Positions 20,783-23,811 of a stretch of 64,000 nucleotides of DNA are shown here, one piece after another. The DNA lies in assembly GCA_009920915.1 (NCBI GenBank), contig RFZB01000001.1, positions 2,025 through 66,024 on the forward strand. The letters are read 5' to 3'. Positions within the stretch are counted from its first letter, which is position 1, and each line of letters opens with the position of its first letter. This DNA comes from Sphingomonadaceae bacterium. GTDB lineage: Bacteria; Pseudomonadota; Alphaproteobacteria; Sphingomonadales; Sphingomonadaceae. A program made the position numbers and the translations under genes. The notes beneath the pieces were generated by a model. The model worked only from the letters and a program-made list of their open reading frames with translations, did no database searches and was not told the DNA's origin.

Positions 20783-22147
20783 TTATGCGATGCGCGCCCC
20801 TTGTCGACAGAGTTCACGTTGAACTGATTTAATATCAATGCTTTCCAGCCCACACTTCATTTGAATTGATAAGGCTGCAGCCACGCCAGCGCCTTGCCCA
20901 GCAACCGCACAGCACATCATGTTGCGGACGGCGGCATGGCTGATTTTATCGCCGCCAATGGCGCGGCCTGTAACCAACAGGTTTTTCACGCCCTGGGGCA
21001 GCATGGATCGATAGGGGACATGGAAATAGCGGCCCGTGGTCGGCAGGATCAGATAGCCATAGCCATCAATGAATTCGGGAAAAATGCCAATGCTGTCGTC
21101 AAAGCGTGCTTCGCCACGCACATCATCGCCAGTCATGTTATAAGCGGCATCAATCTTGCGCGTGTCGCGGATGCCTAATGTCATCCCAAAATTGCGCAGC
21201 TTGGCCGTCTCACAGCCGGGCATGAAGGCGCGAAGGGCATTGATCGCGTGCATCGCTTGTTTGCGGCCTGCCATTTCGCCATGCGTGAGTGCGTCGGGAT
21301 CCGTGCCGTCTAGGTAGAGATGGACCATGTTGAGATAGGTCAGATCGCCTTGATCAGACACGGTGCCCCATGTGCCCGCAATTGTGGCGAGGCTTTCCGG
21401 AATTAGTCCGGCCTCCAGCGCTTTTTGAAACGGCTTGCGCAGGAAGGGGGAGAACATATCATCCTCTTTGCCATCGGTGATGACTTCCCATTCTCCGCCC
21501 ACGGCCCAATCGCCATAGCTTTGCGGATCGGCTTTTACGGCCTCAATGAAGCGCGTTTTGTTGACGCCCGACATAGAGAACATGACCGAGACCGACATCA
21601 TCTCATCCACAGGATGTTTATGCGTGATCGCCCCGGCGCGATGCGCGATATCAGCATCGCCCGTTGCATCAATCACACGCTTGGCGAGAATGGCTTCTCG
21701 GCCTGCTTTGCTCTCAACGATGATGCCACGGATGGTATCGCCCTCCATGATGGGGGCGACGAACATCCGGTGCAGCATTGGGATGACGCCCGCTTCTTCA
21801 ACCAGCGTATCTGCAACACATTTAAAGGCTTCTGCATCAAGGCTGTGGCTGATGGATTGCGGCTCGGGCATGGCGGCGCCCATGTCTTTGGCGCGGTCTT
21901 CAAACTCGCGGCCAATGCCTTCACTGTCGATTGTTTCGGGGTGACGATACCAGGCAAATCCTTCCACCCCAACTTGCGTAATGTTGCCGCCAAAACAGCC
22001 ATAACGTTCCAGCAAAACGGTTTCTGTGCCTGCCCGCGCTGAGGCGAGTGCCGCAGCCAGCCCCCCGGGGCCAGAGCCGACAACGAGCACCTCTGTCTCG
22101 CGGATGACGTCGATCTGGCGTGCCGGTTCGAGGATGACTCCAGTCAT
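20783..22147 (-). CDS. FAD-dependent oxidoreductase (PF12831 FAD_oxidored-type), function unknown
   Basis: [51 protein letters not shown] and [16 protein letters not shown] overlap with the betA stop gives a start at 22147. Confidence 0.85.
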
Positions 22148-23811
22148 CTTTGTGCGCTTTCCCAATTTGGCGATTGATAAAAAGGTGCGTTGGAGGGCGC
22201 GAGAAGGGGTTTGCCCAAAATATGATCTGCAGCCTTTTCCCCAATCATGATGGTTGGCGCATTCAGATTGCCCGTGGTGATGCTGGGCATCACAGAGCTA
22301 TCCACAATGCGTAGGCCAGTGACGCCCAACACGCGCAATTCCGGGTCCACAACGGCCATTGGGTCGTCAATCGCGCCCATTTTGCAGGTGCAAGAGGGGT
22401 GGAGCGCGCTTTCAACATGCTCTGCGATAAAGGCGTCAATCTGTTCATCCGTCACGCAATCAGCACCCGGCTGAATTTCACGCCCGCGCCATGGGGCAAA
22501 AGCGGGTTGTTGGAAGATTTCCCGCGTTAGGAGCACGCACGCGCGCATTTCCTCCCAATCATCGGGGTGGCTCATATAATTGAAAAAGATTTTGGGGGCG
22601 TCGCGCGGGTCTGCGCTGCGCAGGGTCACGCTGCCGCGGCTCTTGGACCGCATAGGTCCAACATGCGCCTGAAAGCCGTGCTCTGTGGCGAGCGAACTGC
22701 CATCATAGTTAATTGCCATTGGGAAGAAATGATATTGAATGTCAGGGTAGGGGATGCCCGCCCGGCTGCGGATAAAGCCACAGCTTTCAAAATGGTTGGT
22801 CGCGCCAATCCCACGCCGGAAAAAGAGCCATTCCGCCCCGGCACGGGCTTTGCCCAGCAGATTGGCTTGTCCGTAGAGGGACACGGGTTTGGTGCACGCC
22901 ATTTGGAAATAAAATTCCAGATGGTCCTGCAAATTGGCGCCGACGCCGGGCCGGTCTGCGACAACGGCAATGCCGTGCTGGCGCAATTCAGCCGCCGGGC
23001 CAATGCCTGAAAGCTTAAGCAATTGAACGGAGTTAATCGGCCCACCGGAGAGGATGACTTCGCGATTGGCCTTCGCTTCATAGGTTTTGCCCCCGCGTTC
23101 ATAAGCAATGCCAATAGCGCGGGTGCCGTCAAACAAAATGCGAGTGGCCAGCGCGTGCTGCACAACATGGAGATTGGGCCGCTTGCGTGCTGGGTAGAGA
23201 TAGGCTTTCGCGGCGGAACAGCGTGTGCCGTCTCGCACCGTCATATCCATCCGGCCAAAGCCTTCTTGGCGAAAGCCATTATAATCCTCGGTCAAGGCAT
23301 AGCCCGCTTGCTGTGCCGCCTCTAGCCACGCGTGATGCAGGGGGTTTTTGAGCGTGCCATAGGCCGTCGACAACGGCCCATCGCCCCCGCGATAGGCATC
23401 GCCCCCTTCTTGGCGGCCTTCCGCACGCTTGAAATAGGGCAGAACCTGTGCGTAGCCCCAGCCTTTGGCGCCATGTTCATCTTGCCAGCGCTCAAAATCC
23501 ATGGGGTTGCCACGCACATAGACCAGGCCGTTGATTGAGGAAGAGCCACCTAAGCCCTTGCCGCGCGGGCAGCTGAGCCGCCGACCATTGAGGGCGGGTT
23601 CAGGCTCGCTTTCATAGCCCCAATTATATTTTTTGCTGTGCATGGGATAGGCCAGGGCGGCTGGCATCTGGATGAAGATGGACCGATCAGACCCCCCAAA
23701 TTCAAGAAGAAGCACTTGGTTCTTGCCATCAGCACTCAACCGATCTGCCAAGACACAGCCTGCCGAACCGGCCCCAATGATGATGAAATCAAAATCTGCG
23801 CGCATCATCAT
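22144..23811 (-). CDS. betA: choline dehydrogenase
   Basis: GMC motifs [67 protein letters not shown] and [13 protein letters not shown]. It is coupled to a BCCT transporter. Confidence 0.9.

Follow-up and report, generated by a model that had tools for sequence, protein, structure and literature searches.

A conserved PF12831 flavoprotein repeatedly recruited into betA operons of Proteobacteria

In the textbook pathway, the conversion of choline to glycine betaine is thought to need only BetA, BetB, BetI, and BetT. What, then, is the role of a further flavoprotein that is coupled to betA in an operon without betB and betI? This question is raised by a stretch of 64,000 nucleotides (nt) from a Sphingomonadaceae bacterium (assembly GCA_009920915.1, contig RFZB01000001.1, positions 2,025 to 66,024; hereafter the window, in which positions are given), where a flavin adenine dinucleotide (FAD)-dependent oxidoreductase of the PF12831 type follows betA. 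A preliminary description of the locus placed the flavoprotein where betB is normally found and suggested that it may oxidize betaine aldehyde, exchange electrons with BetA or a Rieske oxygenase, or process another choline derivative. It also proposed a genome-wide search for betB and a survey of how often betA neighbors this family. The comparative data show that the flavoprotein belongs to a very conserved but patchy ortholog group, whose members work jointly with a carrier for small solutes and have repeatedly been recruited into betA operons. The core of the locus consists of the following features:

22144..23811, minus strand: betA, choline dehydrogenase, a GMC flavoenzyme of 555 amino acids (aa) (TIGR01810 and NF002550; GMC_oxred_N and GMC_oxred_C domains)
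22144..22147, minus strand: overlapping stop codon of betA and start codon of the flavoprotein gene, ATGA (read from the sequence)
20783..22147, minus strand: PF12831 FAD-dependent oxidoreductase, 454 aa (full-length PF12831 match)
19442..20761, minus strand: major facilitator superfamily (MFS) carrier, MFSD1-like, 439 aa (MFS_1, E 5.9e-47; 21 nt after the flavoprotein)

The betA product scores above the curated cut-offs of both models (TIGR01810, 835.5 bits versus 732.1; NF002550, 891.6 bits versus 605). On the minus strand the junction reads caaagATGActgg, with the betA TGA at 22146-22144 and the flavoprotein ATG at 22147-22145, and this 4-nt overlap bears out the ATGA coupling noted earlier. 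The start of the betA open reading frame (ORF) is ambiguous, with three ATG codons in a row at its 5′ end. The assignment of the downstream gene to PF12831 also holds, as the match covers the full profile (294.3 bits versus a cut-off of 27, E 2.6e-87, profile positions 1-416 of 416).

To place this junction in context, 80 loci encoding flavoprotein orthologs (72-93% identical) were fetched. Their genes were called with an ORF caller weighted by G+C content at third codon positions, which gave poor results for L061, L085, and L086, whose GC content is lower; the contigs of relatives at 42-63% identity were too short for gene context. The neighbor survey found betA directly upstream of the flavoprotein in 35 of the 80 loci, with an identical ATGA overlap in 34 of these 35. 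Since the same junction is kept in 34 of the 35, the overlap is not a chance feature. Three other arrangements were also recovered. Two Steroidobacteraceae-like Gammaproteobacteria (L053 and L073) have the order ACS-type MFS, flavoprotein, betA, and folD, where the GMC enzyme is BetA at 805-806 bits and the flavoprotein-betA gap is 6 nt in L073. In a metagenome-assembled genome (MAG) of Woeseiaceae (L082), betA (809 bits) and the flavoprotein gene are divergently oriented, and the Steroidobacteraceae genome G233 has the order betA, BCCT, flavoprotein, and MFS. With the Sphingomonadales order included, the flavoprotein is thus linked to true BetA through four distinct arrangements across Alpha- and Gammaproteobacteria, and in two of the four the genes overlap or lie a few nt apart.

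The same connection is apparent at the level of whole genomes, for which 201 genomes of Sphingomonadales and 81 of Steroidobacteraceae were sampled. True BetA is present in 4/4 flavoprotein-bearing Sphingomonadales versus 12/197 others (Fisher 3e-5), and in 11/13 flavoprotein-bearing Steroidobacteraceae versus 11/68 others (Fisher 3e-6), although both values overstate the association because related genomes are not independent. Moreover, 7 of 10 further carriers whose flavoprotein does not adjoin betA have true BetA elsewhere in the genome. Collectively, comparative genomics gives good support for a functional tie between the flavoprotein and BetA.

In addition to the nonindependence of the genomes, several observations weigh against this tie, or at least against its being specific to choline. 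The 34 coupled loci are kin and therefore count as roughly one evolutionary event. SoxB co-occurs with the flavoprotein about as strongly as BetA does (12/13 versus 21/68), so the link may be to methylated-amine catabolism in general. In other loci, which have no betA nearby, the flavoprotein is accompanied by TauD, a PhnZ-like HD-domain protein, an aminotransferase, or enolase-type dehydratases, and two Roseobacter plasmids carry lone copies of the gene with no informative context.

The flavoprotein is both widespread and uneven in its occurrence. Matches were found in at least 595 stretches of a collection in which 185,579 species are represented by one genome each, and among about 8,000 protein clusters. 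The gene is rare in Sphingomonadales (4/201 genomes) and commoner in Steroidobacteraceae (13/81). Between classes the flavoprotein is 72-78% identical and thus more conserved than BetA (52-68%) or the MFS carrier (48-56%). Its distribution is patchy and it has probably spread horizontally. Cultured carriers include Novosphingobium sp. B 225, in which the layout is betB-betA-flavoprotein, N. acidiphilum DSM 19966, Novosphingobium sp. FKTRR1, which has the flavoprotein-MFS pair alone, and Porticoccaceae nBUS_09.

What has become of betB and betI in the window? Here, betA and the flavoprotein are part of a run of coupled genes on the minus strand, from 34237 down to 17090. The remaining members of this operon, together with one gene outside it that bears on the question, are:

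31724-34237, minus strand: dimethylglycine dehydrogenase (DMGDH)-like protein (profile searches)
30471-31718, minus strand: GbcA-like Rieske oxygenase (profile searches)
30148-30471, minus strand: small cupin (profile searches)
25392-30151, minus strand: soxB, soxD, soxA (broken), and soxG (profile searches)
23808..25373, minus strand: BCCT transporter, BetT-like (PF02028, 512 bits; TIGR00842, 422 bits, above cut-off)
18369..19367, minus strand: LysR-family regulator, operon tail (HTH_1 and LysR_substrate domains)
17090..18397, minus strand: alpha/beta hydrolase, a PETase / PAF-acetylhydrolase-like esterase (PF12740 and PF03403)
49408..50913, plus strand: PuuC-like aldehyde dehydrogenase (ALDH), the genome's best betaine-aldehyde-dehydrogenase-like ALDH (PuuC model, 563.8 bits; betaine-aldehyde dehydrogenase models, 489.4 and 485.9 bits, both below cut-off)

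Profile searches detected no ALDH gene and no TetR/BetI gene in the operon (17090-34237), in agreement with the preliminary description. The search was extended to the whole MAG (2.44 Mb, 347 contigs, 95% complete), where BetB models gave no hit above cut-off: the best scores were 489 bits (cut-off 668.6) and 487.5 bits (cut-off 593), and the hit is the ALDH at 49408-50913. Orthologs of this ALDH exist in relatives that also have canonical betB. For BetI, the best TetR hit in the MAG reached 123 bits versus a cut-off of 201.3. The best BetI-like TetR regulator is located at positions 3444-3992 of contig C295 (genome G000), a contig other than that of the operon.

The idea that the flavoprotein occupies the place of betB is not borne out. 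In all 13 BetB-positive genomes among the 201 Sphingomonadales, betB lies directly upstream of betA, whereas the flavoprotein lies downstream; in the window, the slot upstream of betA that holds betB in relatives is taken by the BCCT carrier. At least 22 betA-flavoprotein operons also have canonical betB upstream of betA (NF009725, 765 bits versus 593; range 765-771), and their flavoprotein is 85-93% identical to the versions in operons without betB. A contiguous betB-betA-flavoprotein arrangement is also present in G086 (a complete genome of the same genus), G125, and G137, which are all the other Sphingomonadales carriers sampled. Because canonical betB accompanies the ortholog within the operons of at least 22 loci and of G086, the flavoprotein is an addition and not a replacement by descent. 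Positional replacement of betB was thus rejected, given that betB sits upstream of betA and coexists with the flavoprotein.

Genomes that have the flavoprotein and lack betB do recur. Five other genomes share the window layout; canonical betB is encoded elsewhere in two and is not detectable in three. It was found in none of the four gammaproteobacterial genomes with the order flavoprotein-betA-folD, nor in G233 with its betA-BCCT-flavoprotein-MFS order. In total, nine flavoprotein carriers lack canonical betB, including the window MAG. Among the four Steroidobacteraceae carriers without betB, the flavoprotein adjoins betA in G216 and G233, is 70 kb away in G237, and is on another contig in G274; in the seven carriers with betB it is unlinked from betBA. 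However, betB is also missing from Steroidobacteraceae BetA genomes irrespective of the flavoprotein (4/11 with it versus 2/11 without it, not significant), and the Sphingomonadales BetA genomes G099 and G139 have neither betB nor the flavoprotein.

The history of the operon can be approached through the gene tree (maximum likelihood, 81 proteins, quick IQ-TREE search, SH-aLRT support). The window protein falls within a fully supported clade of 31 sequences, most of them from betB-betA-flavoprotein loci, and the sox-BCCT-betA-flavoprotein layout is shared only by its three closest relatives in the tree. On account of this position, the window layout is derived and betB was secondarily lost from the operon. 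The betA-coupled group is in turn nested among clades in which only the MFS carrier follows the flavoprotein. We infer from the tree that the Sphingomonadales ancestor may have had an operon of the type (betI)-betB-betA-flavoprotein(-MFS). In the lineage of the window, sox genes and the BCCT carrier would have replaced the part upstream of betA, with betB being lost from the operon.

The protein itself gives information about its class. PF12831 is its sole domain, with one Rossmann motif, and its motifs are GSGPGG at residues 24-29, DATGDAD at 160, and GRAIGGD at 394. Domain scans detected no signal peptide, Fe-S motif, or NAD(P)H domain, and the gene is single copy in the genome. The AlphaFold2 model (pLDDT 94.8, pTM 0.94) has the two-domain fold of GR2-type flavoproteins. 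The protein is a cytoplasmic single-FAD two-domain dehydrogenase or oxidase. Searches of Pfam and NCBIfam revealed no ALDH domain, and judged by its sequence it could only be a functional analog of BetB, never a member of the ALDH family.

The fold does not disclose a reaction. The best structural match is FixC of EtfABCX (7koe chain G, Z 21.5), followed by the geranylgeranyl-reductase-like protein 3oz2 (Z 21.1), both with about 300 aligned residues at 17% identity. These scores hardly exceed those of dozens of other GR2 two-domain flavoproteins (Z 17-19). Foldseek and VIA-align identified no close structure (TM ~0.4-0.5, Z at most 21.5) and no family that stands out. PDB searches, run both with the sequence by itself and with a profile of 50 sequences, gave matches confined to the Rossmann segment. 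Moreover, no NCBIfam model scores above cut-off, and no function for the flavoprotein was found in the literature on PF12831/FAD_oxidored, choline operons, and IbeA. A fusion (Rosetta-stone) search among longer proteins returned one ABC-ATPase fusion only, which is probably a gene-calling artifact. The earlier statement that the family has no assigned reaction is therefore upheld, since no solved structure, curated family, or paper gives one. Clusters named IbeA lie near the flavoprotein in the Atlas; this name is automatic, and the proximity reflects similarity of language-model features.

The most constant partner of the flavoprotein is a transporter. In 24 of the 80 loci, the flavoprotein gene is followed by one for an ortholog of the window MFS carrier (48-77% identical), with a gap below 60 nt or an overlap in 20 of the 24. 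Clusters of this carrier type are automatically named "MFSD1 dipeptide transporter family" in the Atlas, which serves as a lead only. The gammaproteobacterial operons have an ACS-type MFS carrier that is unrelated to the one in the window. In 16 Sphingorhabdus-type loci (L016-L031), a POT-family di/tripeptide:H+ symporter (TIGR00924, 197 bits versus 130) is convergent on betB-betA-flavoprotein, at the position of the MFSD1-like carrier in other loci; both are dipeptide-type carrier families.

The remaining neighbors are diverse. An MFS carrier and a PhnZ-like HD-domain protein of 192 aa precede the flavoprotein in a Steroidobacteraceae locus (L084:6041-7956), whereas in a Nevskiaceae locus (L083:4750-8346) the genes after it encode the taurine dioxygenase TauD (431 bits versus 313) and a protein of 890 aa, for which NCBIfam gave no match at E <= 1e-30. 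The flavoprotein is found near a class-III aminotransferase with an AnmK-like kinase in L069, near a metallophosphoesterase in L059, and near enolase-type dehydratases and a non-BetA GMC enzyme in L080 and L086. TonB receptors are among its neighbors in some loci. Relatives at 32-35% identity are located in LacI, sugar-ABC, and IlvD-type dehydratase operons.

How are these data best explained? The reading we prefer, tentatively and without regarding it as probable, is that the flavoprotein performs an additional oxidation on a choline- or betaine-type solute brought in by the carrier, and that loss of betB is covered by BetA or a generic ALDH. The step would be additional to those of BetA and BetB, as expected from an ancestral betB-betA-flavoprotein operon and the later loss of betB, and its substrate may be the solute that the MFS carrier imports. 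Betaine aldehyde would then be oxidized in this organism by BetA itself or by a generic ALDH such as that at 49408-50913. BetA carries out both oxidation steps in E. coli and Halomonas. Alternatively, the flavoprotein might act on betaine aldehyde (or, more generally, on 2-aminoaldehyde hydrates) as a flavin-dependent oxidase or dehydrogenase, able to replace the NAD-dependent BetB and thereby to provide a BetB-independent route from choline to betaine. The absence of canonical betB from the window MAG, from three of the five MAGs with the same layout, from all four flavoprotein-betA-folD genomes, and from G233 speaks in its favor. The Steroidobacteraceae pattern, in which the flavoprotein adjoins betA in two of four carriers without betB and is unlinked from betBA in the seven with it, fits a bypass. 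Enzymes that produce aldehydes (TauD, the class-III aminotransferase, and GMC enzymes) neighbor the flavoprotein elsewhere, and distant family members precede sugar-acid dehydratases, where a sugar 1-dehydrogenase acting on a hemiacetal may be expected. Yet the enzyme would be redundant in the at least 22 operons in which a copy of 85-93% identity accompanies betB, and betB is likewise missing from BetA genomes without the flavoprotein (2/11 versus 4/11, and G099 and G139). BetA alone is able to oxidize betaine aldehyde, as established biochemically; a dedicated importer would be odd beside an enzyme acting on an intracellular intermediate; and the flavoprotein has no homology to ALDHs. We consider this replacement unlikely. 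The same low probability is given to its strongest form, in which the flavoprotein would be the founding member of a family of flavin-dependent aminoaldehyde (betaine aldehyde) oxidases and, with BetA and the carrier, would constitute a complete NAD-independent and betB-free choline-to-betaine module in freshwater and marine Proteobacteria.

The carrier also admits a reading in which choline is not the substrate. The flavoprotein and its carrier might constitute a self-contained unit for uptake and oxidation of another small solute, such as a hydroxy acid or a sugar-acid-like or dipeptide-like compound from algal exudates, co-selected by niche with genes for choline, taurine, phosphonate, and betaine use. 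This would account for the carrier being the most constant neighbor, the many loci that have the flavoprotein-carrier pair and no betA nearby, the variety of contexts (enolase-type dehydratase with MFS, TonB receptors, HD protein, and TauD), the lone plasmid copies, and the distant homologs in LacI, sugar-ABC, and dehydratase operons. It does not readily explain why true BetA accompanies the flavoprotein in four gene orders, with genes that overlap or lie a few nt apart in two of these, why the flavoprotein belongs to operons headed by betI/betB, or why its dependence on BetA is strong at the genome level, and we regard it as unlikely, though slightly less so than replacement of BetB. A noncatabolic role has also to be considered: the flavoprotein could relay the electrons of BetA to the quinone pool, or supply Rieske oxygenases with electrons, or be protective, as proposed for IbeA in peroxide stress. 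The top structural match, FixC, is the quinone-reducing subunit of EtfABCX (7koe, Z 21.5), the translational coupling suggests production in equal dose with BetA, and IbeA-family clusters are placed near the flavoprotein in the Atlas by feature similarity. Other GR2 flavoproteins, however, match about as well as FixC does (Z 17-21). Neither PF05187 (ETF_QO) nor a ferredoxin domain was detected in the flavoprotein or in a neighbor in the 80 loci, and Fe-S and NAD(P)H-binding domains are likewise missing from the protein. Nor would a dedicated redox partner be expected to pair with a carrier or to occur as lone copies. The suggestion that it donates electrons to the Rieske oxygenase fares poorly in the same light, as no gene for a GbcA-like Rieske protein was detected at E <= 1e-60 in G213 and G216, two carriers from the Gammaproteobacteria. 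A Rieske reductase of the GbcB/BmoB type was rejected on the grounds that the FNR-like FAD/NAD(P)H and 2Fe-2S ferredoxin domains are absent. We consider a noncatabolic role very unlikely.

Returning to the preferred reading of an additional oxidation step, comparison with known systems shows what is new in this operon. The canonical betIBA/betT operon (E. coli, Sinorhizobium, and most Proteobacteria) has in common with it a true BetA, a BCCT (BetT-like) carrier, and tight coupling, and the betB-betA core is complete in related Sphingomonadales. Unlike the canonical operon, that of the window lacks betI and betB, has the PF12831 flavoprotein and the MFSD1-like carrier added after betA, and is fused to genes for conversion of betaine to glycine (Rieske, DMGDH-like, and soxBDAG). 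With the PF12831 family, including E. coli IbeA (ibeRAT), the flavoprotein shares the full-length match, the single FAD Rossmann motif, and a transporter as neighbor, whereas members at 32-35% identity reside in sugar-type and not in choline operons; kinship with IbeA itself is suggested by language-model similarity alone. FixC/ETF-QO-like and geranylgeranyl-reductase-like proteins (7koe G and 3oz2) resemble it in fold only, and it has no ferredoxin-like or ETF_QO domain. To our knowledge, CodA and bifunctional BetA, both GMC enzymes, are the only known cases of flavin-dependent betaine-aldehyde oxidation. They set a precedent for a route without betB, yet belong to a fold family other than that of the PF12831 protein. 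Flavin-dependent oxidation of betaine aldehyde here could be carried out by BetA itself, with no need for the PF12831 protein.

The flavoprotein gene thus emerges as a fifth gene of choline operons that is very conserved, widespread, and uncharacterized, and that has independently joined betA operons several times. Its reaction would provide the first function for a large orphan clade of flavoproteins. It would also reveal either an extra step or substrate in the way that bacteria of lakes and oceans use choline and betaine or a bypass of BetB that relies on flavin. The cultured carriers make its role directly testable.

Other features of the operon deserve comment. A second 4-nt overlap joins the BCCT stop to the betA start (23808-23811), and scans for promoters and terminators gave no signal above chance within the operon. 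The LysR regulator is retained after the flavoprotein or the MFS carrier in about 15 related loci, and the alpha/beta hydrolase is retained after LysR in about 10. The soxA gene (25891-28627, minus strand) is broken: residues 1-752 of the 953-aa ortholog are in one frame and residues 795-953 in another, with residues 753-794 missing. Intact 953-aa soxA is present in the relatives L010, L024, and L028, and the break is either a real deletion with a frameshift or an assembly error. In the adjoining region (34381-36720, minus strand, and 36845-40156, plus strand), there is a transketolase/E1-like protein of 779 aa, for which no model scores above cut-off; its neighbors are an Lrp regulator, a GABA-permease-like carrier, and an AptA-type omega-aminotransferase (720 bits versus 500). 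Finally, a second GMC enzyme, BetA-like and below cut-off (464 bits), heads an operon at 51889-57427 (minus strand) that also encodes an enolase-superfamily (galactonate-dehydratase-like) enzyme, an ALDH, and an ACS-type MFS carrier. The dehydratase and the MFS carrier have orthologs, likewise paired, in the Pseudomonadales MAGs L080 and L086, where the pair adjoins the PF12831 flavoprotein instead.

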